Shown here in pieces: positions 11,575 through 59,615 of a stretch of DNA of 64,000 bases. The translations under genes and the position numbers were made by a program. Under the pieces are notes generated by a model, which did no database searches, was not told where the DNA came from, and saw nothing but the letters and a program-made list of their open reading frames with translations. The stretch's first letter is position 1, and every line of letters starts with the position of its first letter. This stretch comes from Acidimicrobiales bacterium. GTDB lineage: Bacteria; Actinomycetota; Acidimicrobiia; Acidimicrobiales; Bog-793. The DNA is taken from NCBI GenBank assembly GCA_050008715.1, contig JBEKMC010000005.1, positions 2,473 through 66,472 on the forward strand. The letters are read 5' to 3'.

Positions 11575-12474
11575 TCAGCCGGCGTGCCCGCTTCCGGGCC
11601 GGGCGACGTCGCCGATCGAGATGGCGGGACCGAAGCTACGGCGCCGGTTCTCACGCACGAGGCGGTGCAGGCCCTGGTCCGGATCCTCGTCAGCCCTGAG
11701 CCAGGCCACAAGGTTCCAGAACACGACCGGCACGTACGCAGACGCCGCCGCGAACCACAGCACGAACGTCACGATCTCCTGGTCTGCGGCAAAGCTCAGG
11801 GAGCTGCCGGCGAGCGCATGGTGATAGCTCACGTACATCGAAGCGTGAGACAGGCCGACGAGGTAGGCCGTAATCCAGATGGTCCACATGGCGACGGCAG
11901 CGAGGGCGATGCGCTTCGGGCGAGCGAGCCGCGGGACGAGCGGAGGTGACTCCACCAGCTCGAGCCACAACGCCGCTCCACCCGCGATGAGACAGACGGC
12001 CTCGACGAGCACGAGCCAGGGGTGTCGTACAAGCGCGTTGACCACCGCCGGGGTTCTCGCGGCGGTGACGAGGGCCATCTCGACGAGGAGCACAGTCACG
12101 GCTCGGGCGAAGCCAAGATGGCGGTGGCGTGCTGTCGCCAGGCGGTCGATCAGCCGCGCTGAAGCAGTGGTGCCGGCAGACGGCTCGAATGACCCGGCGC
12201 CGGACCCTCCGTTGGAGAGCCGGAGGAATCGCCACGGTGCCCCGAGCACGAGGAGGGCGGGGACGACGATGGCGAGGACGGAGAACCGGAGCGCCTCGAA
12301 ATACTCATAGCGCCGCGCTTCGGTCGCAAACGGTGGCACGAGGACGACCAGCACCAGCACCGCCGCCGCGCAGGCCAGCGATGGTCGCACCCAAGGAGGA
12401 GGCACCACCGGCCGCTCTTCGGCGGCCACGCCGCTCAATGGGAGGGTCGGCGCTGGAAGAACAGCCAGATGCAC
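11575..12474 (-). CDS. ctaG: Caa3-type CtaG cytochrome oxidase assembly factor (divergent)
   Basis: PALLVLGAPW and ADQEI..VLW motifs; multi-TM; in cox operon; start uncertain. Confidence 0.7.
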   Translation of the reverse strand: MHLAVLPAPTLPLSGVAAEERPVVPPPWVRPSLACAAAVLVLVVLVPPFATEARRYEYFEALRFSVLAIVVPALLVLGAPWRFLRLSNGGSGAGSFEPSAGTTASARLIDRLATARHRHLGFARAVTVLLVEMALVTAARTPAVVNALVRHPWLVLVEAVCLIAGGAALWLELVESPPLVPRLARPKRIALAAVAMWTIWITAYLVGLSHASMYVSYHHALAGSSLSFAADQEIVTFVLWFAAASAYVPVVFWNLVAWLRADEDPDQGLHRLVRENRRRSFGPAISIGDVARPGSGHAG

Positions 12475-12551
12475 ACGGCGAAGAGCGTCCCGACGGGTAT
12501 GGCGAATGTCATCGCCTGGGCAGCGACAATCGAGCCGGTCGCGATGATCAT
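12435..12551 (-). CDS. 38-aa single-TM protein, probable small oxidase subunit
   Basis: GGAGGAG RBS then MIIATGSIVAAQAMTFAIPVGTLFAVCIWLFFQRRPSH, directly after subunit III. Confidence 0.6.
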   Translation of the reverse strand: MIIATGSIVAAQAMTFAIPVGTLFAVCIWLFFQRRPSH

Positions 12552-12589
12552 CTCCTCCACCTTTCGTCCCACGACTGCTGAGCCGCGGC

Positions 12590-13270
12590 TCAGATCACAT
12601 AAAACAGTACCCAAAACGCCAGCGACATCAAGGCCATGAATCCCCAGAAGTAGGCGCATCCTTCGAGGTTTGCCCGGAACAGCCGGGCCACCGGCTGCGT
12701 CGAGCGAGCTGGGCCGCCGTCCTGTGCAACGGCACGACGCAACCGCATCGCGCGGGCGAGCAACGTCTCCAACCAATACGTCCCGCACAGGAGCATGGCG
12801 ACGTTCAGAACGGCCCAACCGATGAAGCACGACGCGTAACCGCTCGAACCGGGGTAGAAGGGAAGATTCGTGAGCTGCCAGATCTGGAGCCCCACGGCGA
12901 CGAGCCCGCCGGCGACGGCCGTCCACCCGGCTACCTCCCAGTCCAGCGAGGGGCCTCGGCGCAGGCGGAAGATGCCGTAGGCGTTCAAGCCGGCGGCCAC
13001 GACGGCGATCACGAAGATGGCCGTGCCGGCCCCGATCGGAGCGGTGACGCCGCCCGGTCGCCATAGTTGATCGCTGTCCACCGACCGGAGGTAGAAGTAC
13101 GCGAAGGCCAGGGACGCGAAGGTGAAGACACCGATTCCGATCAGAAGTCGTCCACCGGTCCAGATCGCGCCCTCAGCCGATCGAAGCTCGTACTCGACCT
13201 CTTCGGCTGACTGTTGCAGCAGGTCGACTCGGGCATTGGGCCGACCAGCCGGCATCACATCGTCACTCAT
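12590..13270 (-). CDS. Heme-copper oxidase subunit III (short form)
   Basis: FASLAFAYFYLR, GYASCF motifs; ATGA overlap with subunit I. Confidence 0.8.
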   Translation of the reverse strand: MSDDVMPAGRPNARVDLLQQSAEEVEYELRSAEGAIWTGGRLLIGIGVFTFASLAFAYFYLRSVDSDQLWRPGGVTAPIGAGTAIFVIAVVAAGLNAYGIFRLRRGPSLDWEVAGWTAVAGGLVAVGLQIWQLTNLPFYPGSSGYASCFIGWAVLNVAMLLCGTYWLETLLARAMRLRRAVAQDGGPARSTQPVARLFRANLEGCAYFWGFMALMSLAFWVLFYVI

Positions 13271-15243
13271 GCGGGCAGTCCCCCTGGGTCAGGATCAGCG
13301 GCTCTTGCGATGGTCTCAGCCGAGGGCACGCTCGCCCCGACGGTCTCGATCGATCCGGACCCGAGGTCGGCTACAGGCGGAGCGCCAGGCTCGCTGTAGT
13401 GATACGGGTCGGCGAGGACGACCGGGATGCGGTCGAAGTTGTGGGGAGGCACGGGGGTGGCCGTCTGCCACTCGAGGCCGAGCGAGTCCCAGGGGTTCGC
13501 CGACGCCAGCTTCGGGTCGATGAAGATCGACCAGACGAAGTTGGCGATGAAGATGAGGAACGAGGCCCCGAGCAGGAAGGCGCCGACGGACGAGATGTCG
13601 TTGAGCGTCTGCAGGTTGGAGGCGTACTCGAAGACCCGGCGAGGCTGGCCGAGCAGGCCGACGAGGAAGAGCGGGAAGAACGTCACGTTGAAGAAGACGA
13701 ACATCGTCCAGAAGTGCCACTGGCCGAGCTTCTTGCTGAGCGTCTTCCCGGTCATCTTCGGCAACCAGAAGTAGAGGCCGCCGAAGAAGGCGAACACGAG
13801 GCCGCCCATGATCGTGTAATGGAAGTGCGCCATCACGAAGAAGCTCCCGTGCACGGTGACGTCGACGGGCACGTCGGAGAGGAACACGCCCGTCACACCG
13901 CCGATGAGGAAGTTGAAGTACATCCCCATGGCGAACAACATCGGCACCTCGAACCGTATCTTTGCTTTCCACAAGGTCCCCAGGCCCACGAGGAAGATGA
14001 ATCCCGTCGGTATCGAGATCAGCTCAGTCGTCAGCATGAAGAGTGGGCGCATGTCCGGGTTGATGCCGCTCTGGAACAGGTGGTGCTGCCACACGAAGAA
14101 GGACAGCAAGGCGACGCCGATCATGCCGGCGGCGGCGACGCGGTAGGCGAACAAGGGTTTGCGCGTGAACACCGGGAGGATCTCACCGACGATGCCGAAG
14201 CCCGGCAACGCCATGATGTAGACCTCCGGATGGCCGAAGAACCAGAACAGGTTCTGCCAGAGGAACGAGCTGCCACCGTGCTCGTTCACGTAGAACGCCG
14301 TCTGTACCGTCCGGTCGAGAATGCCGAGCAGGCCCGCCACGACAAGGGTCGGAGTTGCGAGCACGAGCAAGGCCGCGGTGGCGAGCACGGACCACACGAA
14401 GATCGGGATGCGTCCCCACGTCATGCCTGGCGCGCGGTAGTTGATGATCGTCGCGGCCAAGTTGAAGCCGGCGGTGATCATCCCGAGCCCGATCACCGCG
14501 AATCCGACGAGGTAGGAGTCCATCCCCAGCCCGGCCTGGGTCTGCAGCGAGGCGTAGCCGGTCCATCCGGTCGGGAACCCGCCCAAGGGGAGGGCGGAGA
14601 GGATGACGAGGTAGCCGGCGGCGAAGGTCCAGAGCGAGAAGGCCTCGACGCGGGGGAAGGCCATCTTCCGGGAGCCGATCATCAGCGGTATCAGCCAGTT
14701 GCCGAGCGGCCCGATGACGATGGACGACGCCATCATCATCATGATCGTCCCGTGCTCGCCGACCGTCGAGATGTACTGCCCCGGCCCGAAGACGTGGCTC
14801 GTGGGGCTCAACAGCTCGGTGCGGATACCCATGGCGAGGATGCCGCCCGTGAAGAAGAACAGCAGCACCACGATCGTGTACTGCAGTCCGACGACCTTGT
14901 GGTCGAGCGTCGGGCGGAAGTAACGGGTCCAGCTGTGTGACGGGAGCTGAGGCAACGGCTCACGCCCGATCAGCTTGGCTGCCGGGTAGTTGAACATGCC
15001 GGCACCGGCGAGCCACCCGACAACGCCGATCGACAGGCCGAGCACGATCGCCACGTTGTTCTGACCGTTGTCCTGCACAACTGTCTGGTTGGCGGCGATG
15101 ATGTTGCCGAAGAGATGGCCGAGGGCATAACCACCGACCGCTCCTGCGAGCGCCCACACGGCGTTCGGGCTGAAGAACCCGGCCGTCGGTCGTAGGCGCT
15201 CCTCAGGCGGCGAGTCGATGATCGCTTGCGTATCTACGCTCAT
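13267..15243 (-). CDS. ctaD: Heme-copper (cytochrome c) oxidase subunit I with N-terminal TM extension
   Basis: DHKVVG, EHGTIM, GWTGY, WFFGHPEVY, WQHH, AHFHY, GQPRR motifs. Confidence 0.96.
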   Translation of the reverse strand: MSVDTQAIIDSPPEERLRPTAGFFSPNAVWALAGAVGGYALGHLFGNIIAANQTVVQDNGQNNVAIVLGLSIGVVGWLAGAGMFNYPAAKLIGREPLPQLPSHSWTRYFRPTLDHKVVGLQYTIVVLLFFFTGGILAMGIRTELLSPTSHVFGPGQYISTVGEHGTIMMMMASSIVIGPLGNWLIPLMIGSRKMAFPRVEAFSLWTFAAGYLVILSALPLGGFPTGWTGYASLQTQAGLGMDSYLVGFAVIGLGMITAGFNLAATIINYRAPGMTWGRIPIFVWSVLATAALLVLATPTLVVAGLLGILDRTVQTAFYVNEHGGSSFLWQNLFWFFGHPEVYIMALPGFGIVGEILPVFTRKPLFAYRVAAAGMIGVALLSFFVWQHHLFQSGINPDMRPLFMLTTELISIPTGFIFLVGLGTLWKAKIRFEVPMLFAMGMYFNFLIGGVTGVFLSDVPVDVTVHGSFFVMAHFHYTIMGGLVFAFFGGLYFWLPKMTGKTLSKKLGQWHFWTMFVFFNVTFFPLFLVGLLGQPRRVFEYASNLQTLNDISSVGAFLLGASFLIFIANFVWSIFIDPKLASANPWDSLGLEWQTATPVPPHNFDRIPVVLADPYHYSEPGAPPVADLGSGSIETVGASVPSAETIARAADPDPGGLPA

Positions 15244-46477: not shown

Positions 46478-46579
46478 TTCAGCGTGAGACACCGGAGGTT
46501 CGAAGATGAGCACGCTTGTCGTGATGGTCGCGGCGCTCGTACTGATCGGCCTGGCGATGTCGCTTCGCATCGGGCAGCA

Positions 46580-47305
46580 GTGATCGGTAGGCGGCGTGAA
46601 CGGATTCTGAGTCGGCTCGTCGGCATCGGGGCTCCCGCCCTCGAGACGAACCGGCTCTGCGAGGTCTGCGCCGAAGTGACGAACACGAGCGGGGCAGGGA
46701 TCATGCTCATGTCCGGTGACTTGCCACGTGGATCGTTGTGCACGACCGACGCGGTAAGCGCTCTCATCGAGCAGCTGCAGTATGACCTCGGGGAGGGTCC
46801 GTGCGTGGACGCCTACAAAGAGGACCGACCCGTGCTCGAACCTGACCTCGCTCGTCCGAGCACGATCAGGTGGCTCGCTTTCGCCCCGCCTGCAGTCCAG
46901 GCAGGTGTCCTCGCCGTCTTCGGCTTCCCGCTGCAGGTGGGAGCAGTCCGCCTCGGGGCACTCAACCTGTACCGCAACAGTCCGGGGCCGCTCAGTGACG
47001 AGCAGCATGCCGACGCCCTCGTCCTATCAGACGTCGCCGCTCAGACGATCCTCGTGCTTCAGGCAAACGCCCCGCCGGGCAAGGTGGCAGCCGAGCTCGA
47101 GGAGGGCGCCGATTTTCAGTACGTGGTGCACCAGGCCTCCGGCATGGTGGCCGCCCAGCTCGAGGTCAGTGTCGCACAAGCGCTCATCCGGCTGAGGGCC
47201 TACGCCTTCGGCAACGACCGTCGCCTCGCTGAGGTGGCCGACGACGTGGTGGGCCGCACGCTCCGCTTCGACGCGGCAAGCGGCGCGAAGGATCCCTCCC
47301 CGTGA
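46580..47305 (+). CDS. GAF-ANTAR domain protein
   Basis: GEGPCVDA, GALNLY, VHQASGMV..A...LRAYA; start estimated. Confidence 0.9.
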   Translation: MIGRRRERILSRLVGIGAPALETNRLCEVCAEVTNTSGAGIMLMSGDLPRGSLCTTDAVSALIEQLQYDLGEGPCVDAYKEDRPVLEPDLARPSTIRWLAFAPPAVQAGVLAVFGFPLQVGAVRLGALNLYRNSPGPLSDEQHADALVLSDVAAQTILVLQANAPPGKVAAELEEGADFQYVVHQASGMVAAQLEVSVAQALIRLRAYAFGNDRRLAEVADDVVGRTLRFDAASGAKDPSP

Positions 47306-47428
47306 GAGGCCACCGCAGGAAGCGGCGCCAGCGGTTTCTACGCCCTGTCCGTTCTACACTGGCACTTCCGGTCGGGCTTCTAGGGCAAGGCCAGGAAGAT
47401 GGCTCAGGCCGACCGAAGTGGAGATCCG

Positions 47429-48169
47429 ATGCCCAGAGAAGCGCTGCTCGCGAGGACGCTCGTCGAACTGGCCGACACCCTCGTGGCGGACTTCGACGTG
47501 GTCGAGCTGCTGACACGGCTTGCCGATCGCTGCGTCGAAGTGCTCGACGTCGGAGCGGCCGGACTCATGTTGGCGGCGCCTGACGGCGACCTGCGAGTGA
47601 TGGCCTCCTCGTCGGAGGCCATGCGCCTCTTGGAGCTATTCGAGCTTCAGTCTCGAGAAGGTCCCTGCCTCGACTGCTATCTCACCGGTCAACCGGTAGT
47701 GAACCAGAACCTCGCCATCGTCAACGGCCGCTGGCCCCGATTCGCCCCCGAAGCGCTCGCCGCCGGCTTCCGTTCCGTCCACGCTCTGCCGATGCGACTC
47801 CGCGGGTCCGTCATCGGAGCCCTCAACTTGTTCCATGTCGAACCCGGTGAGATGCGACCAGATGATGTCGAGGCGGCGCAGGCTCTCGCCGACGTCGCCA
47901 CCATCGCCATCCTTCAACACCGGGCTACTCTCGAAGCTCAGGTCCTCAACGAGCAGCTCCACCATGCCCTCAACAGTCGCATCGTCATCGAGCAAGCCAA
48001 GGGAATGGTCGCTGAGCGCGAAAACCTCGACATGGAGCAGGCGTTCTTCACGTTGCGCAACCACGCCCGCAACCACAACCTTCGCCTCGTCGAGGTCGCG
48101 GGCGCCGTGATCGCCGGCTCGCTGCCGGTGTCAGCGCTCGATCACCCCCGTCGGGCGAAGCCGTCGTAA
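47429..48169 (+). CDS. GAF-ANTAR domain protein
   Basis: ELADTLV.DFD, EGPCLDC, LNSRIVIEQAKG. Confidence 0.93.
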   Translation: MPREALLARTLVELADTLVADFDVVELLTRLADRCVEVLDVGAAGLMLAAPDGDLRVMASSSEAMRLLELFELQSREGPCLDCYLTGQPVVNQNLAIVNGRWPRFAPEALAAGFRSVHALPMRLRGSVIGALNLFHVEPGEMRPDDVEAAQALADVATIAILQHRATLEAQVLNEQLHHALNSRIVIEQAKGMVAERENLDMEQAFFTLRNHARNHNLRLVEVAGAVIAGSLPVSALDHPRRAKPS

Positions 48170-51076: not shown

Positions 51077-51541
51077 AACTCGTCGGGACGGCCGACCGTA
51101 GGTGGCGTCCTGCCCGAACCAGGCGTCTCTTAGATCAATCCGCCAAGCGCCACGCCTGAGACCGCACGCGAGAAGAGCTAGGTGTAGGGTCATCGCGTCT
51201 CAGCTGGCGCGAGTCCTCTCCGAGTATGGGGGGAGATCGGCGGTTCCCATGGAACCGGACATCGCAGGGCAGGATCGTGTCGCGGCGGTCAGCGCGGCGC
51301 TGCGAACCACCACACTGCCCCGACGGTGGTGCGCTCCGTGGCGGTCGTCCGCTCCCGTACACCCGAGGGGACCGCCGAGATCGCAGTCGATTCCGGCGCC
51401 AACCACGTGAGGGTGATCTCGAAGGTGGACCTGGTAGCCGACACCCGCCTGCTCCCGTATGGCAGCAAACGCCGTGCCTCGCTACCAAGCCCGGTACCGA
51501 CGCTCTCGAAGACTAGGACTACGTGAACCGAGGAGAACAGC

Positions 51542-52282
51542 ATGGATGAGCATCGGGTGGCATTGGTGACCGGCGGGACGCGAGGGATCGGCGCGGCCAT
51601 TATCGGAGCGCTGGCCGCCGACGACATCCACGTAGCTGCCGGATACAGCAGGAACCGGGCGGCGGCTGACGACATGGCCGCCACACTGGCGGCAACAGGT
51701 CGTGCCGTCTCTTTGCACCAGGGCAACGTCGGAGTGCCGGAGGACTGCGAGCGGGTCGTCGACGAAGTCCTCGAACAACACGGCCATATCGACTATCTGG
51801 TCAACAACGCCGGTATCACTGTCGACAAGACCATGCGCAACATGAGCGTGGACGACTGGCACGCGGTGCTGCGTGTCAACCTTTCCGGTGCCTTCTACAT
51901 GTCCAAGGCCATCCTGGAGCACATGATCGGTCGCGGTTTCGGTCGCATCGTCAACATCAGTTCCATCATCGGTGAAACCGGCAGCGTCGGTCAGGCCAAC
52001 TACGCCGCCTCCAAATCCGGTCTGTTCGGGCTCACCAAGAGCCTGGCCCTCGAAACGGCCCGCAAGGGCATCACCGTGAACTGCGTCGCCCCCGGCTTCA
52101 TCGACACGGAGATGGTTGCAGCCGTCCCCAAAGAGGTCCTGGACCGGGTCGTCGCCACCATCCCCATGCGCCGGCTGGGCCACCCTGACGAGATCGCCCA
52201 CGCCGTGCGGTTCCTGCTCCAAGACGGCGCCGGTTACATAACCGGCAGCGTGCTCTCCGTCAACGGCGGCATGGAAATGTGA
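51542..52282 (+). CDS. phaB: Acetoacetyl-CoA reductase (PhaB/FabG-type SDR)
   Basis: TGGTRGIG, NNAGIT.D, GQANYAASK, PGFIDTEMV; PHA gene context. Confidence 0.8.
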   Translation: MDEHRVALVTGGTRGIGAAIIGALAADDIHVAAGYSRNRAAADDMAATLAATGRAVSLHQGNVGVPEDCERVVDEVLEQHGHIDYLVNNAGITVDKTMRNMSVDDWHAVLRVNLSGAFYMSKAILEHMIGRGFGRIVNISSIIGETGSVGQANYAASKSGLFGLTKSLALETARKGITVNCVAPGFIDTEMVAAVPKEVLDRVVATIPMRRLGHPDEIAHAVRFLLQDGAGYITGSVLSVNGGMEM

Positions 52283-52379
52283 GCCGACCCAGCGAGCGTC
52301 TCGGCGAGACCTGGCCGGGACACGGCGGCTTGCGTATCGCTGACATCAGGCATTCGAGTCGCAAACAAAGGACGCGCAC

Positions 52380-54329
52380 GTGCAGCCATTCATCGTTAAC
52401 CGTCATGACCGAATCGTGTTTCCCTCGAACTTCATCCCAGAGCTGGACTTGTCTGTCATGCACAGCCTCGAACAACTCGACAGCGTGATCAGGCGCGACT
52501 TCGAAGTGAAGGCTCCTACGGGCACAGACATCCTCAACCGGGTCGAGGACGGTGCCTACGCCAGTCGATATGAGCTGATGCGCGACGTCGCATTGAACCT
52601 CTTCTGGACCACTCGCTTTACGATGACTTTGTACGAGAAGCGTCCCACCCGCTGGTCTGACGTGCCACGCTCCCGCAGTGACGTATTCCTGCCGATCCTG
52701 ACCCCATGGGAAGACGGTGACCGCAAGGTTGCCGCTGTGCAGAGTGCCTACGAGGCTTTGCCGCCGACGTGGGACCGCGAGGTCGAGGACCGTATATTCG
52801 GGATCCTCTTCGACGTCTTCGGGCACCGCAAGCACCATGCCACCGATCTACCGACGATCCCACCCACGGTCGCAGAGACCCTTTCCGATCCCACCAACCT
52901 CACGCTACGGCTGCCCAGCTACGACGCCGACTACCCGGTCTTCGCTTTCACCGACATCGCCGACTGCAACGAGGACGTCGCTGAGCTCGAGGCCCTGAAC
53001 CGCTGGGCCATGGTGCTGCACAACCAGTACCCGTGGAGCCGCGCCGAGACTGAGCTCATCGAAGTCGGCCAGTTGAGCGACAACGACTTCGTCGTGCTCT
53101 TCCACCCACGCGACCAAGAGGTCCGACACTTTCTTCGACGCCTCGGCGCAGGCGAGGCACCGAAGTTCGCCTCGGCGGCCAAAGAGGCCACCCGGCCAGT
53201 CAGGCCCTACCCACCCGTGAACGTGCGGACGCACTTCTCGGTGATGCCCCGAATCGAGGCGCTGGCCGTGGTCCACGGAGATCGGGTCTGCACCAATGAG
53301 GACCTGATCCGCAACGCGGCCTACAACTGGTCACCCATGGCGGCAGACGAGATCCGCGAGAAGACCGGTATCGAGCAACGCCGCTACACCTCGCACGGCC
53401 TCGAGGAGATCGCGCTGCAGGCGGCGCAAGGCGCGTTGGCGCACGCTGGGCGTGGACCCGGTGAGATCGGGGGGGTGCTCGTCTGCACGTGCACGAGCAC
53501 TCGCATGATTCCCTCGATAGCCACCTGGGTCTCTGGTCAACTGGGCATCTTCCAGACCCACGCGTCCTGCGACATCGTGGCGGCGTGTGCGGGGCTGCCG
53601 TACGGCTTGTCCGACGCTACGCGGATCCTCCAGGAGGTGCAGCGTCCCGTGCTTGTCCTGTGCGTTGAGAAATTCTCGGACAAGATCGGAAACGTCAGGC
53701 CCTCCCGCATGATCTTCGGTGATGGCGCCTCGGCCATCGTGCTTGGCGTTGCCCCGCCGGGTGAGCCGCCCGACATCGAGTACCTGCAGACGTACGCCAG
53801 CGGCCCGGCGAGCGAGGTGAACTCGATCATTTGGCCGAATCCCGCCTTCGACAACAACATCACGGTGTACGGACCGGAGGTCAAGGCGCTGGCCGGCCGC
53901 TACCTGGAACAGATGATCGACGAGCTGAAGGTGCTGCCCGATCCAGACGGAGTGAAGGCTTCGCTCCTCGAAAGCATCGACCTCATCGTGCCCCACCAGG
54001 CGAACAAGACGATGGTCAGCCAGCTTGCCACGCAGGCGGGCCTCTCCTCGGACAGCCTCTACTTCAACATCGAACAGGTCGGCAACGCCTCCTCGGCGAG
54101 CATCCCGCTGGCCATCCACGACGCCGTGCGCGACGGCGTCATCTCAGAGCCGGTGCGCATCTTCACTCCAGGCTTCGGGGCTGGTGCCGTGGCGGGATAC
54201 GTCGTGATGCGCATCGATCCGGCCGTCGTGGCAATCGCCCCTGGCTCGCCGACGACCGAGGGCGCTGCGTCTTTCGGCAGCACGCGTGCCGAGTCCTCGT
54301 CAGAAGACGTGCGGCTGGCGTTCGGGTAG
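52380..54329 (+). CDS. FabH/KAS III-like condensing enzyme with ~290-aa N-terminal extension
   Basis: Cys-His-Asn triad: AACAG, PHQAN, GNASSAS; FGDGA, GFGAG. Confidence 0.85.
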   Translation: MQPFIVNRHDRIVFPSNFIPELDLSVMHSLEQLDSVIRRDFEVKAPTGTDILNRVEDGAYASRYELMRDVALNLFWTTRFTMTLYEKRPTRWSDVPRSRSDVFLPILTPWEDGDRKVAAVQSAYEALPPTWDREVEDRIFGILFDVFGHRKHHATDLPTIPPTVAETLSDPTNLTLRLPSYDADYPVFAFTDIADCNEDVAELEALNRWAMVLHNQYPWSRAETELIEVGQLSDNDFVVLFHPRDQEVRHFLRRLGAGEAPKFASAAKEATRPVRPYPPVNVRTHFSVMPRIEALAVVHGDRVCTNEDLIRNAAYNWSPMAADEIREKTGIEQRRYTSHGLEEIALQAAQGALAHAGRGPGEIGGVLVCTCTSTRMIPSIATWVSGQLGIFQTHASCDIVAACAGLPYGLSDATRILQEVQRPVLVLCVEKFSDKIGNVRPSRMIFGDGASAIVLGVAPPGEPPDIEYLQTYASGPASEVNSIIWPNPAFDNNITVYGPEVKALAGRYLEQMIDELKVLPDPDGVKASLLESIDLIVPHQANKTMVSQLATQAGLSSDSLYFNIEQVGNASSASIPLAIHDAVRDGVISEPVRIFTPGFGAGAVAGYVVMRIDPAVVAIAPGSPTTEGAASFGSTRAESSSEDVRLAFG

Positions 54330-54353
54330 GCGAGGCGGCCGGGGACGTCGTCG

Positions 54354-55268
54354 TTAGGAAGTCTCCGAGAGTGCCTTGGCGATGATCGTGGTCTCTTCGT
54401 CGAGCGACGACGGCTCGTGCAGTCGATCGACGTCCACTTGGTCGATGAGCGAGAAATTGGCACGAATGGCTTCGGGAGTGTTCTCGGCGAGCACGACGCC
54501 GTGCGTCTCCGCCACGAGGATCCTGGCGATCCGGCCGCCGGCCACGGAGTAGACGTGACCACTGACGGCGCATTCCTCGTGAGCGAGGTAGGCGACGAGA
54601 GGGCTCACGGACTCGGGCGAGACCTTGGCAGCCAGGTCACCCAAGATGTCCTCGGTCATTCGGGTGGAGGCGATCGGAGCGATGGCGTTGACGTTGATCC
54701 CGTGGCCGGCACCCTCGAGGGCGAGGACGCGGGTTAACCCGGCCAGGCCGGACTTGGCCGCGCCATAGTTGGCCTGACCGAAGTTGCCGAACAGGCCGGA
54801 GGCGGAGGTGGTGTTGACGATGCGGCCATACCCTTGCCGGCGCATCAGGCAGAAGGCCGGCTGACTGACGTAGAAGGCTCCCTTGAGGTGGACGTCGATC
54901 ACCGTGTCGATCATCGTGTCGTCCATCTTGTGGAAGGCCTTGTCCCGCAGGATGCCTGCGTTGTTGATCACGATGTCGACTCGCCCGAAAGCGTCCAGCG
55001 CGGCCTGCACGATGGCATGCCCACCTGTTGCGGTAGCCACGCTGTCGTGGTTCGGCGCCGCTGTTCCACCAAATGCGGCGATCTCGTCGACGACTCGATC
55101 TGCAGCCGACATCGAAGAACCGCTACCGTCGAGTGCGCCGCCCAGGTCGTTCACCAAGATGCGGGCTCCACGACGAGCGAGCTCGAGCGCGTGGGAACGC
55201 CCGAGACCGCCGCCGGCTCCGGTGATGATGGCTACACGTCCGTCAAAGCGCAGATCGGTCATGGTCAT
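54354..55268 (-). CDS. MFE-2-like (3R)-hydroxyacyl-CoA dehydrogenase SDR
   Basis: TGAGGGLG, VNDLG, NNAGILRD, GNFGQANYGAAK. Confidence 0.88.
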   Translation of the reverse strand: MTMTDLRFDGRVAIITGAGGGLGRSHALELARRGARILVNDLGGALDGSGSSMSAADRVVDEIAAFGGTAAPNHDSVATATGGHAIVQAALDAFGRVDIVINNAGILRDKAFHKMDDTMIDTVIDVHLKGAFYVSQPAFCLMRRQGYGRIVNTTSASGLFGNFGQANYGAAKSGLAGLTRVLALEGAGHGINVNAIAPIASTRMTEDILGDLAAKVSPESVSPLVAYLAHEECAVSGHVYSVAGGRIARILVAETHGVVLAENTPEAIRANFSLIDQVDVDRLHEPSSLDEETTIIAKALSETS

Positions 55269-55391
55269 GTCCTTCGTCGTCGAGGTTGGCGGCTCCGGCG
55301 GGCTGCAGGCCGAACCGACATAGTTGTTGGCGTGTGCCCGCGCGCACAAACTCGGTCGGCAGTGCACCCGACCGACGAGCTCCGGAGAACG

Positions 55392-56216
55392 TCATGGCCG
55401 CTGGCCGATCATGTCTTCTGTCGGCAGCGCATCCTGGCCGACAGCCGCGTGACTCCAGCGCTCAGCCGCGTGCTTGCCGGACACGACGGCTACCGGTCCG
55501 AGGAAGTCCTCGACGGCACGCGCCAACAGCCTCGCCGGTTCGGGACGCTGTAGGTTGTGGCCCCCGGCCAGCATGACGAACGAGGCGTTGGGGATCCTTC
55601 GTGCCAAGAGGCGGCTGTTGGCGGGAGGAACGAGGCGGTCGTGGGCCCCGCACACGACGAGTGTGCGGGCTGTGATGGCCCCCAGGAACGGGATGCTCGA
55701 CCAGCTCGCGAACGCCAACGACTGCGACAACAGGCTCCAGGCATCGGGGCGCCGCCAGGCGTTGCCGTCATCGGGCATCTCGAGATCACGCAGCAGGACG
55801 CCCCTGCTGCCGGGCGTGGCCCCTATCCCGCACGAGGTGGCGACGAGGACCAACCGGCGCAGCCTGTTCGGGGCGTCGCAAGCGAGCTGCTGAGCAACGG
55901 CACCCCCGTGGGAGAACCCGAGAACGTCTGCGTCATCAAAGCCAGCGGCGTCGAGCACCGCCACCGCCAGCTCAGCCAGCCCGGCTATCGATACGGGAAG
56001 AACCGGCGTGGCGCTGGCACCGACGCCCGGTGCGTCGAAGCTGACGACGGTTCGCCCGGTCAGCTGCCGAGAGAACGGCTCCCAGCTCTCGAGCGGACGA
56101 GACATCCCGTTGATCAGCAGCAGCGGATCGCCTTCGCCCCGGATCCGCACGGCGATCTGAAGCCCATGAACGCTCAACAGCATCGAGTCGACGTCGCTCG
56201 ATCGAGACCGGCTCAT
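55392..56216 (-). CDS. phaZ: Alpha/beta hydrolase, probable PHA depolymerase
   Basis: LLLING, FDAPGVG, GFSHGG nucleophile elbow; ATGA-coupled to phaC. Confidence 0.75.
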   Translation of the reverse strand: MSRSRSSDVDSMLLSVHGLQIAVRIRGEGDPLLLINGMSRPLESWEPFSRQLTGRTVVSFDAPGVGASATPVLPVSIAGLAELAVAVLDAAGFDDADVLGFSHGGAVAQQLACDAPNRLRRLVLVATSCGIGATPGSRGVLLRDLEMPDDGNAWRRPDAWSLLSQSLAFASWSSIPFLGAITARTLVVCGAHDRLVPPANSRLLARRIPNASFVMLAGGHNLQRPEPARLLARAVEDFLGPVAVVSGKHAAERWSHAAVGQDALPTEDMIGQRP

Positions 56217-57934
56217 GACTGGGCGCGTACGTAGCTCCCGGGCGCCGGCTCGATGGGCGGATGCTCCTTGCTGCCGAGCTCTCGCGGAGCCGCCACCTTG
56301 GGCCCACCCTGCCTGCCGATCCACTCGGTCCAGTCCTCCCACCACGTGCCATCTCGCAGCTGGGCCGATGCCTTCCACTCCTGCGGATCGGCCGGGTGGG
56401 CGTCGTTCGTCCAGTGCTTCGCTTTCGGGCTGGGTGGGTTGACGATTCCGGCGATGTGGCCGGACGTGCTGAGCACGAACCTGTTGTGACCGCCGAGCAG
56501 CTGCGTGGTCTTATAGCCAGAGACCCAAGGGACGATGTGGTCGTCGACCGCCGACAGGACGTAGGTGTCGACCTCGACCTTGCCGGGGTCGAGCTTCAGA
56601 CCGCCGACTACGAACTCTCCCCGGGCGAACTCATTGTGGAGGTAACACGACCGCAGGTACTCCGAGTGCATCTTGGCCGGCATCCGTGTGCTGTCCTTGT
56701 TCCACACGAGCAGGTCGAAAGCCGGCGGCTTCTTGCCGAGCAGCCAGTTGTTCTCGACGTACTGGAACACCAGGTCGTTGGCACGTAGCGCGTCGAAGGT
56801 GTGTGCCATCTTGTCGGAATCGAGAAAGCCTTGCTTGGCCATCTGCTTCTCGAGACCGGCGATGGTGGCCTCATCAGTGAAGACGCCGAGTTTGCCGGGA
56901 ACGGTGAAGTCGGTGTGCGTGTTCAGGAACGTGGCTGACTTGATCGAGCGATCGCCGATCGCTGCTTCGTAGGCCAGGCCGATCGCGGTGAGCGTCCCAC
57001 CGAGACAGACGGACAGAGTGTTGACCTCCGGTGCGCCGGTGATCTCGCGGACGACCCGGACGGCGTCCAAGGGCCCCTGCCGCAGGTAGTCCTCGAAACC
57101 CAGGTCACGCATCGTCGCATCCGGATTGCGGTAGCTGATGGCGAAGCAGGTGTGACCGTGCTGGACTGCCCACTCGATCAGGCTCTTCCCGGGCGCAAGA
57201 TCCATGATGTAGTACTTGTTGATCCACGGCGGGCAGAAGAGCAGCGGCACGGCGTGCACTCGCTTGACCTGCGGCTCGTACTGGATCAGCTCGATCAGGT
57301 CGCTCCGGTAGACGACGGCCCCGGGGGTAGCGGCCATGTTGACGCCGACCTCGAAACCGGAGGCGTCGACTTGCGACGGCCAACCGCCGTTGTGACGAAG
57401 GTCGTCCAACATGTTCTTCGCACCCCGGACCACGCTCTTGCCACCGGTGTCGAAGGCCTGCCGGATCGCAGCCGGGTTGCCGGGCAGGGTGTTGGAGGGC
57501 GCCAAGGCATCGAGGATGAACTTCGCCGCGAACCGTGCCTTGGTGTCCTGTTCGGGCTCCAGCCCGGCCGCGTCCAGCAGTTCGTTGACCAGCTGACAGC
57601 CCAGCAGGTATTGCTGTGCCATCAGGAAGTACAGGGGGTTGTGGGCGAAGGCGGGGTCGGCGAAGCGTTTGTCGCCAGGCGAGGGAGAGATGGGACCGGC
57701 CTGCTCGCCGCCCACAGCTCCAACCGCTGTTGCGCCGAGTGCTGCAGCCAGGCCGATCGTCAGCCGGGCGTTGGCGGCGAGAGCACCGGCCGGGTTTCTG
57801 ATCAGCGCGGCACCGGCGGCGGCGAGTGACCGCAAGAACGAGACCGGGTCGGCGGCCATCATCGGATCTTCCGACACGCCGAGCCGGTCGAGAATTGACG
57901 GCTCTTCTGACTCGGGACTCTGGGCTGGATTCAT
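56213..57934 (-). CDS. phaC: PHA synthase (class I/II type)
   Basis: DKRFADP, PPWINKYYIMDL, SVCLGG catalytic Cys, DDHIVPW, SGHIAG, WWEDW. Confidence 0.95.
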   Translation of the reverse strand: MNPAQSPESEEPSILDRLGVSEDPMMAADPVSFLRSLAAAGAALIRNPAGALAANARLTIGLAAALGATAVGAVGGEQAGPISPSPGDKRFADPAFAHNPLYFLMAQQYLLGCQLVNELLDAAGLEPEQDTKARFAAKFILDALAPSNTLPGNPAAIRQAFDTGGKSVVRGAKNMLDDLRHNGGWPSQVDASGFEVGVNMAATPGAVVYRSDLIELIQYEPQVKRVHAVPLLFCPPWINKYYIMDLAPGKSLIEWAVQHGHTCFAISYRNPDATMRDLGFEDYLRQGPLDAVRVVREITGAPEVNTLSVCLGGTLTAIGLAYEAAIGDRSIKSATFLNTHTDFTVPGKLGVFTDEATIAGLEKQMAKQGFLDSDKMAHTFDALRANDLVFQYVENNWLLGKKPPAFDLLVWNKDSTRMPAKMHSEYLRSCYLHNEFARGEFVVGGLKLDPGKVEVDTYVLSAVDDHIVPWVSGYKTTQLLGGHNRFVLSTSGHIAGIVNPPSPKAKHWTNDAHPADPQEWKASAQLRDGTWWEDWTEWIGRQGGPKVAAPRELGSKEHPPIEPAPGSYVRAQS

Positions 57935-57993
57935 GGTGTCCTTCCTCGGCGGTCTGTGAGCGAGGCAAGTCAATGCCCCACCAGCGGGTGGGT

Positions 57994-58356
57994 TCAGGAT
58001 TCTTGGTTGGCCTCGACATAGCTCCGGTAGACAGCGAGCAGCGCACGCCCTTGGGCCTCGGTGAGGCGTCGGTCGGCACGAATCGCCCGCTCGGTCGCCT
58101 CCTCATCCGGATTCTCGGCGTCACTGATCAGTCCGGCTTGCTGCAACAATGTCTCTGCGGACACGTTCAACGCGTCGGCGATCGACTTGAGCACTCGGAC
58201 GGACGGCTCGTGCAGCCCGCGTTCGAGTTGGCTCAAATAGGGGTTGGAGACTTCCGTCAGCGCCGACAGCTGGCGCAGCGACAGATTGGCCATCTGCCGC
58301 TGCACCCGAATGAACTCTCCCAGCATGCGCCGGGGATCGTTCTCTTTAGCTGTCAT
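57994..58356 (-). CDS. XRE-family HTH regulator (Rv0474-like)
   Basis: LGEFIR.QR..LSLRQL..VSNPYLSQLERG..PS. Confidence 0.9.
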   Translation of the reverse strand: MTAKENDPRRMLGEFIRVQRQMANLSLRQLSALTEVSNPYLSQLERGLHEPSVRVLKSIADALNVSAETLLQQAGLISDAENPDEEATERAIRADRRLTEAQGRALLAVYRSYVEANQES

Positions 58357-58396
58357 GAGCGCTTACGCCTGACTTGTGGCCGAACCCGGGCGTAGC

Positions 58397-58705
58397 TCAG
58401 GCCGACTTCGCGGCTACCAGTACCTTCGCGAGCTGCAAGGCGTAGTCGCGCTGCGAGTTCAGCAGGTCGGCGGCGACGTCGAACGTGAACTTGGTTGCGG
58501 CTTCCATGCCGGGAATGGCGGAGATGCCGGGAATGGCGGGCAGATCGGGGACGGGAAGAACCGAAACGGCCTTGACCCAGGTCTGAATGGCGTCGACCGA
58601 CATCTTCTGACCCTGCTGGACGGTGGACACCAACTGCTCGCGGATCTTCTCGGCGAAATCGGGCATCTCGGTCGTGGGTGTGGTCTTCGTGGTCGCTGTA
58701 ACCAT
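58397..58705 (-). CDS. Small amphipathic helical protein, probable phasin
   Basis: AAGGAG RBS; 102 aa; first gene of the phaC operon. Confidence 0.6.
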   Translation of the reverse strand: MVTATTKTTPTTEMPDFAEKIREQLVSTVQQGQKMSVDAIQTWVKAVSVLPVPDLPAIPGISAIPGMEAATKFTFDVAADLLNSQRDYALQLAKVLVAAKSA

Positions 58706-58757
58706 GGTGACTCCTTAGAGGTCTTCGAAAGTGCTCGGGGTTCCCGGCACAGTGCAC

Positions 58758-58789
58758 AGCATACACACCAGGTGCTTGATATGTCAAGC
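58758..58789 (-). promoter_or_regulatory. SigA promoter of phasin-XRE-phaC-phaZ operon with overlapping operator
   Basis: Minus strand TTGACA-N18-TATGCT; GCTTGA-TATG-TCAAGC palindrome at 58774-58789. Confidence 0.75.
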
Positions 58790-58857
58790 GACGGGTGGAG
58801 AAGAGCAAACCGGTCGGCGGTGAATCGATTCCTGCGACACTCGGCTGAACGACGGTG

Positions 58858-59445
58858 CTAGACGATGATCCCGGTCAGCACCAGATCGACGATGTACTCG
58901 AGGACTTCGTCATTCAAGGGCTCCTTCGTCAGCAGGAATCGTAGGTACAGCGGTCCGACCAACGTCTCTATCGTCAGGAAGCGGTCTACGCCAGAACGCA
59001 GCTCCCGGCGATGCTCAGCTCGATCGAGGATGGCAGATGCACGCGTGAAGCGCTCGTTCCAGTACTTGTCACGCCCCGCGTCGGAGTTCGGGAGATCGAT
59101 TCTCAACGCCATGCGCACCATATTCTCCCCGAGCGGAGTGCCGAGGAACCCTGCGATGGCACGGAGCAAGGCGAGCAGGTCCTCGCGCAGGGATCCCGTG
59201 TCGGGAGTCGGGATCTCCAGCTGTGCAACGCTGAGCAGCGCGTCGATCGCGAGGTCGGCCTTGGTCCCCCAGCGCCGGTAGATGGACGACTCGTGCACTT
59301 CGGCACGTTCGGCAACCTCTTTGATCGAGAGCGTGTCGAATCCGCTTTCGGAAAGGACGTCGATCGTGGCCCCGAGCACCGATGTCCGCACCCGGGCGCT
59401 CCTACCCCCGGTCCGGCGAACCCGTGGAGGATCGTCGTCGACCAT
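58858..59445 (-). CDS. TetR family regulator
   Basis: GGRSARVR, VAERAEVHESSIYRRW, PDTGSLREDL. Confidence 0.92.
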   Translation of the reverse strand: MVDDDPPRVRRTGGRSARVRTSVLGATIDVLSESGFDTLSIKEVAERAEVHESSIYRRWGTKADLAIDALLSVAQLEIPTPDTGSLREDLLALLRAIAGFLGTPLGENMVRMALRIDLPNSDAGRDKYWNERFTRASAILDRAEHRRELRSGVDRFLTIETLVGPLYLRFLLTKEPLNDEVLEYIVDLVLTGIIV

Positions 59446-59493
59446 ACCGGAAGTTATACCGAGACTCCCTCGTACGGGGTCGGCTGGGTATGC

Positions 59494-59515
59494 TAAGGCG
59501 AACCCACTCGCGTTA
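59494..59515. promoter_or_regulatory. Putative TetR operator
   Basis: TAAGGCGA-N6-TCGCGTTA (7/8 palindromic) upstream of tetR. Confidence 0.55.
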
Positions 59516-59615
59516 ACAGGACGGTGAGGAAGGCCAGGCGGTCGCGACGTCACGGCGTCTCCTCGGATCTCAGGAGGACAACTTTGATGCTCCTATTCCC
59601 ATCGACCTCGGCGCG

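Follow-up and report, generated by a model that had tools for sequence, protein, structure and literature searches.

A PHA gene cluster at positions 51542-58705 of the 64-kb stretch of DNA analyzed here (the window), which derives from a peat-soil actinobacterium of the Acidimicrobiales, encodes a 649-aa protein that is a real, conserved two-domain fusion and, judged from its sequence, represents a family of two-domain KAS III enzymes that is so far undescribed. We favor, with some reserve, the reading that this fusion is a malonyl-CoA-dependent acetoacetyl-CoA (3-ketoacyl-CoA) synthase that supplies PhaB and PhaC. Such a role would suggest a natural route to bioplastic precursors, driven by ATP and fed by malonyl-CoA, of a kind so far built only by engineers. 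The genes and domains are as follows.

51542..52282, + strand: PhaB-like NADPH-type SDR (acetoacetyl-CoA reductase-like), 246 aa; TIGR01829, NF009464
52380-54329, + strand: gene of the 649-aa fusion protein, directly after the phaB-like gene
52380..53249, + strand: N-terminal domain of the fusion (residues 1-290), without family or known fold
53250..54215, + strand: KAS III (FabH-like) condensing domain (residues ~291-612); PF08545, PF08541
54216..54329, + strand: disordered C-terminal tail of the fusion (by pLDDT), with conserved end motif
54354..55367, - strand: second SDR, PRK07791-type; likely start ATG 55268, ~304 aa; adh_short E 7e-42
55392..56378, - strand: alpha/beta hydrolase, possible PHA depolymerase; likely start ATG 56216; Abhydrolase_1 E 3.2e-23
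56213..57973, - strand: PhaC, class-I-like PHA synthase; likely start ATG 57934; PhaC_N E 2.6e-58
57994..58356, - strand: XRE-family HTH regulator, 120 aa; HTH_3 E 2.3e-13; GC3 0.76
58397..58705, - strand: small phasin-like protein, 102 aa; GC3 0.83
58858..59553, - strand: TetR-family regulator (TetR_N, TetR_C_11), next to the cluster and only possibly part of it

The original prediction had named phaB, phaC and XRE genes, and all three are present. The PhaB-like SDR scored 294 bits with NF009464 (cut-off 269) and 301 bits with the acetoacetyl-CoA reductase model TIGR01829 (cut-off 302.1), and PhaC, the genome's sole PhaC_N match, scored 597.5 bits with the class I model TIGR01838 (cut-off 622.65). 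For comparison, 80 related loci were assembled (53 actinobacterial, 23 from Rokubacteria/Methylomirabilota, 3 gammaproteobacterial and 1 acidobacterial). An XRE copy 70-83% identical to that of the window immediately precedes phaC in 19 of them, XRE homologues of any kind being found in 25, and tblastn for the TetR regulator gave no match passing the filter in the 80 loci. Three other predicted names need correction. An SDR is indeed present, with the ribosome-binding site GAAGGA ahead of its likely start, and its gene and the KAS gene converge in 19 of the 53 actinobacterial loci. The proposed R-specific type of this SDR is plausible, its best model being NF005861 (PRK07791-type) at 268 bits, below the cut-off of 373. 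The supposed phaZ, whose start overlaps the phaC stop as ATGA and which is found in 18 of the 53 actinobacterial loci, is a generic alpha/beta hydrolase and possibly a PHA depolymerase; with 116 bits against the 250.6-bit cut-off of the depolymerase model TIGR02240, the name is not established. The 102-aa protein is kept in 13 of the 80 loci at 56-78% identity and matched no family in a Pfam search, so that the name 'phasin' is a guess based on its size and its place in the cluster. Within the stretch, the word depth of RNA-library contigs peaks at its gene; this depth is no measure of expression.

The fusion gene starts with GTG, 8 nt downstream of AAAGGA, and the resulting start M-x-P-F-V-V-N-R-H-G-R is common to all 16 relatives compared, which are part of a family 59-97% identical to the protein. 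The best 120 of 4072 matches are 623-691 aa long and align over 96-100% of the query at 80-97% identity, and GC3 is similar in both parts of the gene (0.80 for residues 1-290, 0.84 for the remainder). The N-terminal domain had no Pfam match at E <= 10 and no PDB match by sequence search. Its AF2 model (pLDDT 81.3, pTM 0.76) resembled no recognizable fold among 48,161 chains (Foldseek best E 2.9; VIA best Z 4.5). Searching 1.84 billion sequences gave 381 cluster representatives at E <= 1e-3 and, among 12 that were inspected, the domain was found only ahead of KAS III domains: 7 had KAS III behind it and the other 5 were cut off or frameshifted. One may guess that it acts in assembly or regulation. 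Residues 621-649 of the tail are modeled at pLDDT < 50, residues 641-648 forming a terminal helix, and the tail ends in the conserved motif S-E-D-V-x-L-A-F-G, which is kept in members from Actinomycetota and Gammaproteobacteria and missing from the 618-aa forms of Rokubacteria.

In the fusion, the KAS III Pfam domains are confined to residues 398-612. The intact catalytic triad foreseen for the protein after phaB was borne out, since all 23 aligned members have Cys403, His539 and Asn569, and the C-terminal domain is thus predicted to be a decarboxylating Claisen condensing enzyme. The ACP-docking segments of the genome's own FabH read E-V-F-R and H-Q-A-N-Q-R, those of the fusion family E-V-K-A and H-Q-A-N-K-T; among the 23 members the docking Phe position is occupied by Lys (15), Arg (5) or Gln (3) and the docking Arg position by Thr (19), Pro (2), Ala (1) or Val (1). 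The corresponding segments are E-V-R-R and H-Q-A-N-G-V in three NphT7 orthologues, defined by context in that their genes immediately follow the one for HMG-CoA synthase. The aligned fusion proteins all retain the CoA-contacting Arg (EcR151), as R440, and the position of the pocket-gating EcPhe87 holds Ile, Met or Leu, as in Vibrio FabH2, so that the primer may exceed acetyl in length.

Linkage of the homologues to pha genes, a check set by the original prediction, was found in the actinobacterial loci, where phaC occurs in 30 of 53, phaB in 35 and either one in 40. No linkage to pha or carboxylase genes was detected in the 23 Rokubacteria/Methylomirabilota, 3 gammaproteobacterial and 1 acidobacterial loci, which suggests that the core job of the family is not PHA-specific. 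In a converse approach, 60 PhaC loci were fetched from 401 evenly sampled Actinomycetes genomes, and the fusion lay within about 9 kb of phaC in 11 of them. Six of these 11 show a second and independent cluster type, the compact order phaC (41-45% identity), KAS (56-57%), phaB (64-67%), whose phaC has no match in locus L167. An 881-aa relative (P0132) combines the N-terminal domain, KAS III and an SDR part that is 46% identical to the PhaB of the window, and this Rosetta-stone fusion counts in favor of the reading given above.

In 29 of the 53 actinobacterial loci, a single-chain carboxylase of about 1840-1870 aa with BC-BCCP-ACC_central-CT architecture is encoded on the strand of the fusion gene. 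In most it lies upstream of the fusion gene, and 10-70 nt separate the two wherever neither ORF is disrupted; it lies downstream in L018, L019, L024 and L029 (gaps of 47-519 nt), in L032, and in L020, there about 4.3 kb away past the pha genes. The carboxylase gene is absent from the 64-kb window, and a 50%-identical paralogue is present on another contig of this genome. Together with the PhaB fusion and the replaced docking residues, this linkage in both gene orders lends new support to the malonyl-CoA part of the route that had been proposed.

According to the reading that we favor, Cys403 would take up a short acyl-CoA primer, most likely acetyl-CoA, which would be condensed with malonyl-CoA rather than malonyl-ACP to give acetoacetyl-CoA, or 3-ketovaleryl-CoA from propionyl-CoA, together with CO2 and CoA. 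The PhaB-like reductase, possibly also the second SDR, would reduce the product to (R)-3-hydroxyacyl-CoA and PhaC would polymerize it, while the 102-aa protein might coat granules, the XRE protein regulate and the hydrolase serve mobilization. In many relatives, malonyl-CoA would come from the adjoining single-chain, eukaryote-like acetyl-CoA carboxylase, and we propose that ATP hydrolysis and decarboxylation would thereby drive polymer synthesis.

It seems improbable that the fusion is a specialized FabH, which would convert an acyl-CoA primer and malonyl-ACP to 3-ketoacyl-ACP for fatty-acid synthesis, or for PHA only indirectly via ACP-bound intermediates, the neighboring carboxylase being simply the first enzyme of fatty-acid synthesis. 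FabH enzymes account for all the best matches by sequence and by structure (TMt 0.85-0.89 and 24-31% identity for the KAS part; best PDB match the medium-chain Vibrio FabH2), and the loss of EcR36 and EcR249 is no proof of CoA use because a KAS III of Acinetobacter that genuinely uses ACP conserves neither of them (PMC8036411). The carboxylase is single-copy in 5 of 5 carrier genomes searched and, in three carriers compared, adjoins the fusion gene in one and lies elsewhere in two, as for a housekeeping enzyme; it may be the general malonyl-CoA source and not a pathway enzyme. The carboxylases next to the fusion gene also share their BC-BCCP-central-CT architecture with SACE_4237 of Saccharopolyspora erythraea, which carboxylates acetyl- and propionyl-CoA and is described as essential for fatty-acid synthesis (PMC6491548); in the accessible text of that paper the terms 'ketoacyl', 'polyhydroxy', 'genomic context' and 'neighbo' do not occur. 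However, the fusion stays under the cut-offs of both FabH models (NF006829, 174 bits against 249; TIGR00747, 143 against 292), and a canonical FabH, distinct from the fusion (31% identical to it in this genome) and placed among housekeeping FabHs in the tree, is encoded both here and in other carriers. Moreover, no ACP, FabD or FabF gene is found among 60 neighbors of the 11 scanned loci, the docking Phe is replaced in every aligned member, and the phaC/phaB linkage and the PhaB-like fusion partner point toward PHA. Enzymes of the KAS III fold include non-condensing acyltransferases, and over-expressed FabH reportedly transfers (R)-3-hydroxyacyl groups between ACP and CoA in engineered E. coli; the N-terminal domain, too, could alter the chemistry. 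That the KAS III domain acts mainly as such a transacylase and does not condense is nevertheless very hard to credit, given the invariant decarboxylative triad and a strong link to a malonyl-CoA-forming carboxylase that would have no role.

More serious, though still unlikely, is that an unlinked thiolase supplies acetoacetyl-CoA as in classical PHB synthesis and that the fusion, only loosely co-located with storage-carbon genes, uses malonyl-CoA for something else, such as longer 3-ketoacyl-CoAs or a primer from which lipids, wax esters or a small polyketide would be built. As predicted, no thiolase was detected in the window by tblastn (E <= 1e-3) with the genome's best thiolase (L001) as the only query, nor in any of the 80 loci at the same threshold. 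The genome nevertheless encodes six full-length thiolases elsewhere, all passing TIGR01930 (the best with 498 bits against the 526-bit cut-off of the acetyl-CoA C-acetyltransferase model), and strong Thiolase_N matches (E <= 1e-40) number 3-7 per genome in five other carriers, so that a thiolase could supply acetoacetyl-CoA. A thiolase lies near phaC in just 2 of the 60 Actinomycetes PhaC loci and neither thiolase nor fusion in 48; being rare near phaC in this class anyway, a missing thiolase is weak evidence, and the claim of thiolase independence is not established. The 27 non-actinobacterial loci without pha linkage, a WS/DGAT gene near the fusion at L061, three loci of the same cluster type without the fusion within reach (L146, L151, L156) and the residues at the EcPhe87 position fit such a separate role as well. 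Against it, two different PhaC lineages each adjoin the fusion gene and phaB, the fusion is the commonest candidate near phaC for forming a C4 keto-thioester (11 of 60, versus 2 of 60 for thiolase), and a PhaB-like reductase forms part of one relative. The original observation is thus confirmed with corrections and its interpretation partly supported, the idea having withstood two of the three refuting checks set for it, those on pha linkage of the homologues and on thiolase genes in the 80 loci.

Like the acetoacetyl-CoA synthase NphT7 (EC 2.3.1.194), which in Streptomyces sp. CL190 is described as condensing acetyl-CoA and malonyl-CoA without thiolysis activity (PMC5509993), the fusion is a KAS III homologue with a Cys-His-Asn triad, has both FabH docking residues, Phe and Arg, replaced and is encoded in a thiolase-free cluster for a pathway that depends on acetoacetyl-CoA. 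By identity, however, it is no closer to context-defined NphT7 orthologues (26-29.5%) than to the genome's own FabH (28%) and is not a close relative of NphT7; the fusion clade (SH-aLRT 100) is placed as sister to the NphT7-context clade with weak support (SH-aLRT 81; stem length 2.0). NphT7 orthologues are single-domain proteins of about 325 aa from mevalonate clusters, whereas the fusion family, of putative activity, has the additional 290-aa domain and lies beside pha and carboxylase genes. With E. coli FabH and Vibrio cholerae FabH2 the fusion shares the fold, the triad and the CoA-contacting Arg; it differs in staying under NCBIfam cut-offs, in its separate long-stem clade, in the replaced docking residues and in the added domain. 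As in classical phaCAB clusters, PhaB-like and PhaC-like genes stand together with regulator, phasin-like and hydrolase genes; unlike there, no PhaA is found in the window or the 80 loci, and the KAS III fusion, often with acetyl-CoA carboxylase, appears to take the place of the first enzyme. The same chemistry as proposed here, malonyl-CoA-driven acetoacetyl-CoA formation followed by PhaB and PhaC, operates in NphT7-PhaB-PhaC routes (e.g. PMC3899235, PMC11539682), which in the portions of the literature searched are engineered only. Whereas those routes are man-made, that of the fusion would be natural and would employ another enzyme family with a linked carboxylase.

The PHA cluster of the window lies on contig C161, whose host genome (3.9 Mb, 215 contigs) is 93% complete; the GC content of the window is 0.62-0.71. 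DNA near-identical to the stretch is present in peat and soil metagenome runs, and the closest public relatives of the 649-aa fusion protein encoded in the cluster come from Acidimicrobiales MAGs. ORF listing, GC3 and family scans set the gene order as follows:

51542-52282, + strand: PhaB-like SDR
52380-54329, + strand: 649-aa fusion protein
54354-55367, - strand: second SDR (likely ATG at 55268)
55392-56378, - strand: alpha/beta hydrolase (likely ATG at 56216, overlapping the phaC stop as ATGA)
56213-57973, - strand: PhaC (likely ATG at 57934)
57994-58356, - strand: XRE regulator
58397-58705, - strand: 102-aa protein of no family
58858-59553, - strand: TetR gene

The original prediction had named phaB, phaC, phaZ, phasin-like and XRE genes and an R-specific-type SDR, with no thiolase in the window, and the presence of the named genes was confirmed by the ORFs, GC3 and family scans; a tblastn search with the best thiolase of the genome gave no match in the 64 kb. 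Two of the names were kept in part. The gene called phaZ encodes an alpha/beta hydrolase, but its scores fall far under the depolymerase cut-offs (TIGR02240, 116.3 bits versus 250.6; NF050089, 47.3 versus 300), and the product may be a depolymerase of a type not yet modelled; the proposed R-specific-type SDR is an SDR, but its match is only PRK07791-like. PhaC matches PhaC_N with an E value of 2.6e-58 and reaches 597.5 bits with the class I subfamily model, just under the cut-off of 622.65. The PhaB-like SDR passes NF009464, narrowly misses TIGR01829 (301 bits versus 302.1) and stays below the PhaB equivalog NF042966 (206 versus 436). At 56213-56216 the hydrolase start codon overlaps the phaC stop codon (ATGA), which suggests from the sequence that synthase and hydrolase are translationally coupled. 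A 151-aa reading frame at 58353-58808 (-) was rejected as a gene, its GC3 being 0.48 and its translation Arg-rich; the true genes there are the XRE gene and the 102-aa ORF, and since the frame is wrong, its matches in related loci are wrong-frame matches to the same DNA.

A scan for promoters and terminators gave counts no higher than in shuffled sequence. In four metatranscriptome libraries (sequencing runs X12, X16, X17 and X18; two labeled permafrost metagenome and two only 'metagenome'), contigs covered parts of all the cluster genes, the fusion gene among them (window 51400-58800). The highest word depths in these contigs fell on the 102-aa and XRE genes, depth being a measure that cannot rank genes, and the contigs give at most a hint of cluster transcription, with DNA carry-over possible in such libraries. 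Elsewhere in the window, a pair of neighbouring genes at 46484-48169, upstream of an MFS transporter gene, encodes GAF-ANTAR proteins of 273 and 256 aa, which resemble RNA-binding antiterminator-type regulators.

The 649-aa protein is a real fusion. Its gene has a GTG start preceded by AAAGGA, and GC3 is 0.80 over residues 1-290 and 0.84 over the rest. The start M-x-P-F-V-V-N-R-H-G-R is common to sixteen relatives from four phyla, and the best 120 of 4072 matches have lengths of 623-691 aa, identities of 80-97% and query coverages of 96-100%. ACP_syn_III (PF08545, E 4.1e-9) and ACP_syn_III_C (PF08541, E 4.7e-20) were both detected past their cut-offs, and these KAS III domains, like every PDB sequence match, are confined to residues ~291-614. 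The predicted full-length model is of good confidence, with a pLDDT of 85.5 and a pTM of 0.85, and its KAS half superposes on FabH from E. coli, Yersinia and Aquifex with TMt values of 0.85-0.89. As the original prediction had it, the FabH Cys-His-Asn triad is intact: Cys403, His539 and Asn569 align with it and are invariant in 23/23 members.

Residues 1-290, the N-domain, match no Pfam family at E <= 10. Against the PDB the best E values were 2.1 by sequence profile and 2.9 by Foldseek, the ESM Atlas gave no usable match, and VIA-align against 48,161 chains gave a best Z of 4.5, with generic helical matches only. Modeled alone, the domain reaches a pLDDT of 81.3 and a pTM of 0.76, so that what is at hand is a confident predicted model with no convincing structural relative. 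Searched alone against 1.84 billion cluster representatives, it gave 381 matches at E <= 1e-3, and the 12 that were inspected included no stand-alone form: seven have KAS III domains behind the N-domain and five are truncated or frameshifted. Among candidates for stand-alone proteins, P0130 and P0133 both end inside the protein and P0200, P0253 and P0191 are frameshifted; a search for shorter forms returned mostly apparent cut-off pieces of the fusion family on contigs of 1-3 kb. In 300 other evenly drawn genomes of the phylum the N-domain was found in none.

The C-terminal tail comprises residues 613-649 (window 54216-54329). Its last 29 residues are disordered and close in a short helix with a conserved ..S-(E/D)-D-V-x-x-A-F-G motif, which is kept in actinobacterial and gammaproteobacterial members (for example at loci L057, of the culturable carrier Geodermatophilus ruber DSM 45317, L085 and L170), some of the second cluster type described below among them, and is missing from the 618-aa Rokubacteria forms. 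It resembles a short docking motif. P0132 (881 aa), a match from the N-domain search, joins N-domain and KAS III to a PhaB-like SDR 46% identical to the PhaB of the window. A search for longer fusions gave only five matches. P0394 (1204 aa), a single record among them, joins the central and CT parts of the single-chain carboxylase described below to the initial 26% of the fusion protein and may be a true fusion or an artefact of assembly or read-through. P0393, one of the five, is unexplained; three of the five were set aside as unrelated E1-dehydrogenase fusions.

A search for relatives confirmed 139, of which 80 loci with identities of 59-88% were kept: by record title 53 from Actinomycetota, 23 from Rokubacteria/Methylomirabilota (two of them titled 'uncultured bacterium' and placed by similarity), three from Gammaproteobacteria and one from Acidobacteriota. 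Linkage of the homologues to pha genes, on which the original prediction depended, was borne out by the neighbourhoods in Actinomycetota. Within the flanks of the 53 actinobacterial loci, phaC was found in 30, phaB in 35 and one or the other in 40, and a tblastn search of all 80 loci at E <= 1e-3 detected no thiolase. A second SDR occurs in 19/53 and an alpha/beta hydrolase in 18/53; of the 80 loci, 25 have the XRE gene and 13 the 102-aa gene. Where Rokubacteria and Gammaproteobacteria loci were scanned, unrelated genes flank the fusion gene, among them genes for methionine-synthase-like, amidase and amidohydrolase proteins. A search of three Rokubacteria carriers gave a short partial PhaC_N match in two and none in the third, and one gammaproteobacterial carrier encodes a class I PhaC at another place in its genome. 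At L061, an actinobacterial locus with no pha genes, a wax-ester synthase/diacylglycerol acyltransferase gene (12273-13913, -) lies ~2.3 kb from the fusion gene.

A eukaryote-like, single-chain acetyl-CoA carboxylase of the SACE_4237 type accompanies the fusion gene in 29/53 actinobacterial loci, together with a pha gene in 20, and 49/53 have the carboxylase, phaC or phaB. It is 1836-1866 aa long (L019, L022, L024, L014) and combines BC, BCCP, ACC_central and carboxyltransferase in one chain. SACE_4237, the characterized enzyme with this architecture, carboxylates acetyl-CoA and propionyl-CoA (PMC6491548). The carboxylase and fusion genes share a strand. In most loci the carboxylase gene lies upstream, and 10-70 nt separate the two where neither ORF is interrupted; it is downstream in L018, L019, L024, L029 and L032 (gaps of 47-519 nt in the four measured), and in L020 it lies ~4.3 kb downstream, past the pha genes. 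At L014, the closest relative (88% identical), a gene of the acetyl-CoA hydrolase/transferase family (645-2234, -) and then the carboxylase gene stand between phaB and the fusion gene, whereas in the window phaB is directly followed by the fusion gene and there is no carboxylase gene. Genes similar to this hydrolase/transferase were found in 5 loci by ORF clustering. The only single-chain carboxylase of the window's own genome is a 1892-aa paralogue on another contig (C186, locus L093, 772-6447), 50% identical to that of L014 and flanked by genes for a PKS-dehydratase-like protein and a 4'-phosphopantetheinyl transferase. Each of five carrier genomes has exactly one ACC_central protein, whose gene adjoins that of the fusion in G306 and is at another place in G308 and G310, and the carboxylase may be the general malonyl-CoA source of the cell.

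PhaC_N was present in 53/401 evenly drawn Actinomycetes genomes, a tally that counts four unpublished genomes left out afterwards; the others gave 60 PhaC loci. The fusion gene lies within ~9 kb of PhaC in 11 of these (9 intact, one frameshifted, one at a contig end), a thiolase lies near PhaC in two, one of them also with the fusion gene, and 48 have neither. Six of the 11 (L139, L147, L150, L162, L167 and L170) represent a second, compact cluster type, in which phaC (41-45% identical to that of the window; no match past the filter in L167) stands beside the fusion gene (56-57%) and phaB (64-67%), with no carboxylase, XRE or phasin-like gene. The divergent phaC of this type indicates that two PhaC lineages occur beside the fusion enzyme and a PhaB. 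In three loci of the window's own cluster type (L146, L151 and L156) the fusion gene was not within reach.

On balance it is somewhat probable that the fusion enzyme is a putative 3-ketoacyl-CoA synthase dependent on malonyl-CoA, in the simplest case an acetoacetyl-CoA synthase, and that Actinomycetota recruited it, in many cases along with the carboxylase, to supply PhaB and PhaC. That a thiolase feeds the PHA cluster and the fusion enzyme makes something else is unlikely; the missing phaA says little by itself, because thiolases seldom cluster with phaC in Actinomycetes. The own genome has six thiolases past TIGR01930, none of them in the window. All six stay below the cut-off of the PhaA equivalog (at best 360 bits versus 740), and one scores 498 bits versus the 526 required by an acetyl-CoA C-acetyltransferase model; strong Thiolase_N matches (E <= 1e-40) number 3-7 in each of five other carriers.

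A specialized FabH using malonyl-ACP is quite unlikely. The fusion protein remains under the FabH model cut-offs (NF006829, 174.2 bits versus 249; TIGR00747, 143.1 versus 292.1), and a single ordinary FabH, 31% identical to it, is encoded at another place in the genome. In a 36-row tree from a quick search, the 14 fusion rows form a clade with an SH-aLRT of 100, and the FabHs of this genome and of other carriers fall in a clade apart. The docking sites read E-V-F-R and H-Q-A-N-Q-R in the genome's own FabH and E-V-K-A and H-Q-A-N-K-T in the fusion family. At the docking Phe and Arg positions, which we take to be F213 and R249 by E. coli FabH numbering, the 23 members have K/R/Q in 15/5/3 and T/P/A/V in 19/2/1/1, respectively, the column of K502 in the protein P0001 aligning with the Phe. 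R440, the counterpart of the CoA-contacting Arg (EcR151), is invariant, and the position of the pocket-gating EcF87 is Ile, Met or Leu. An ACP-KAS III binding study describes roles for R36, R249, F213 and K256, places F213 and R249 at the ACP interface and reports a genuine ACP-using KAS III of Acinetobacter that has neither R36 nor R249 (PMC8036411). Because such an enzyme exists, the replacements are suggestive only in pointing away from FabH-type ACP use. A non-condensing transacylase is very improbable, and the remaining probability is reserved for readings beyond these four.

If the favored reading of a malonyl-CoA-dependent synthase is extended, soil and peat Actinomycetota might have a dedicated, natural, ATP-driven PHA route, with this and not a thiolase as the main entry to storage polyester. 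The carboxylase would supply malonyl-CoA, the two-domain KAS III with its new-fold 290-aa domain would irreversibly form acetoacetyl-CoA for PhaB and PhaC, and N-domain and C-terminal tail would dock to carboxylase, reductase or granule in a channeled 'PHA-some'. This whole scheme is possible, and we put it forward tentatively. In PHB synthesis the step catalysed by thiolase is thermodynamically unfavorable, and engineers have circumvented it by importing the malonyl-CoA-using NphT7; if the scheme is true, nature solved the problem in the same way. A 'missing phaA' in genome readings is usually filled silently by any thiolase, and the PHA potential of peat and soil Actinomycetota genomes would then be read differently. 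The production of bioplastics and C4 chemicals would also gain a new enzyme family, in which partner docking might already be built in, and the N-domain, confidently modeled and with no detectable structural relative, is a target for structure determination. In the literature covered, mostly outside subscription journals, the only PHA routes of this kind that came up were engineered NphT7-PHB pathways; no natural one based on KAS III or independent of thiolase was found, and no description of the fusion family. Both the chemistry and the polymer pathway are already known; the enzyme family, its N-terminal domain and the linkage to the single-chain carboxylase are new.

According to a review, NphT7 condenses acetyl-CoA and malonyl-CoA without thiolysis, and in mevalonate clusters KAS III homologues occupy the downstream end (PMC5509993). 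In the comparison NphT7 was represented by orthologues, defined by context as KAS III genes directly 3' of HMG-CoA synthase. A prokaryotic HMG-CoA synthase past the cut-off was found three times among the 401 evenly drawn Actinomycetes genomes, each time with a ~325-aa KAS III gene directly downstream. These three proteins are 26-29.5% identical to the KAS domain of the fusion, no closer than the genome's own FabH (28%), and in them docking Phe and Arg are likewise replaced (E-V-R-R, H-Q-A-N-G-V). In the 36-row tree the fusion clade, on a stem of 2.0, is sister to a clade of the three orthologues and one Streptomyces paralogue with an SH-aLRT of only 81. The fusion enzyme may thus work like NphT7, with membership in that family no more than a possibility. 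With FabH the fusion shares the fold and catalytic triad of its KAS domain, and it differs in model scores, docking Phe and Arg, tree position and the added N-domain. The NphT7 type is a single-domain protein of ~325 aa encoded in a mevalonate cluster, whereas the fusion protein has 649 aa, carries an N-domain and is encoded beside pha genes.
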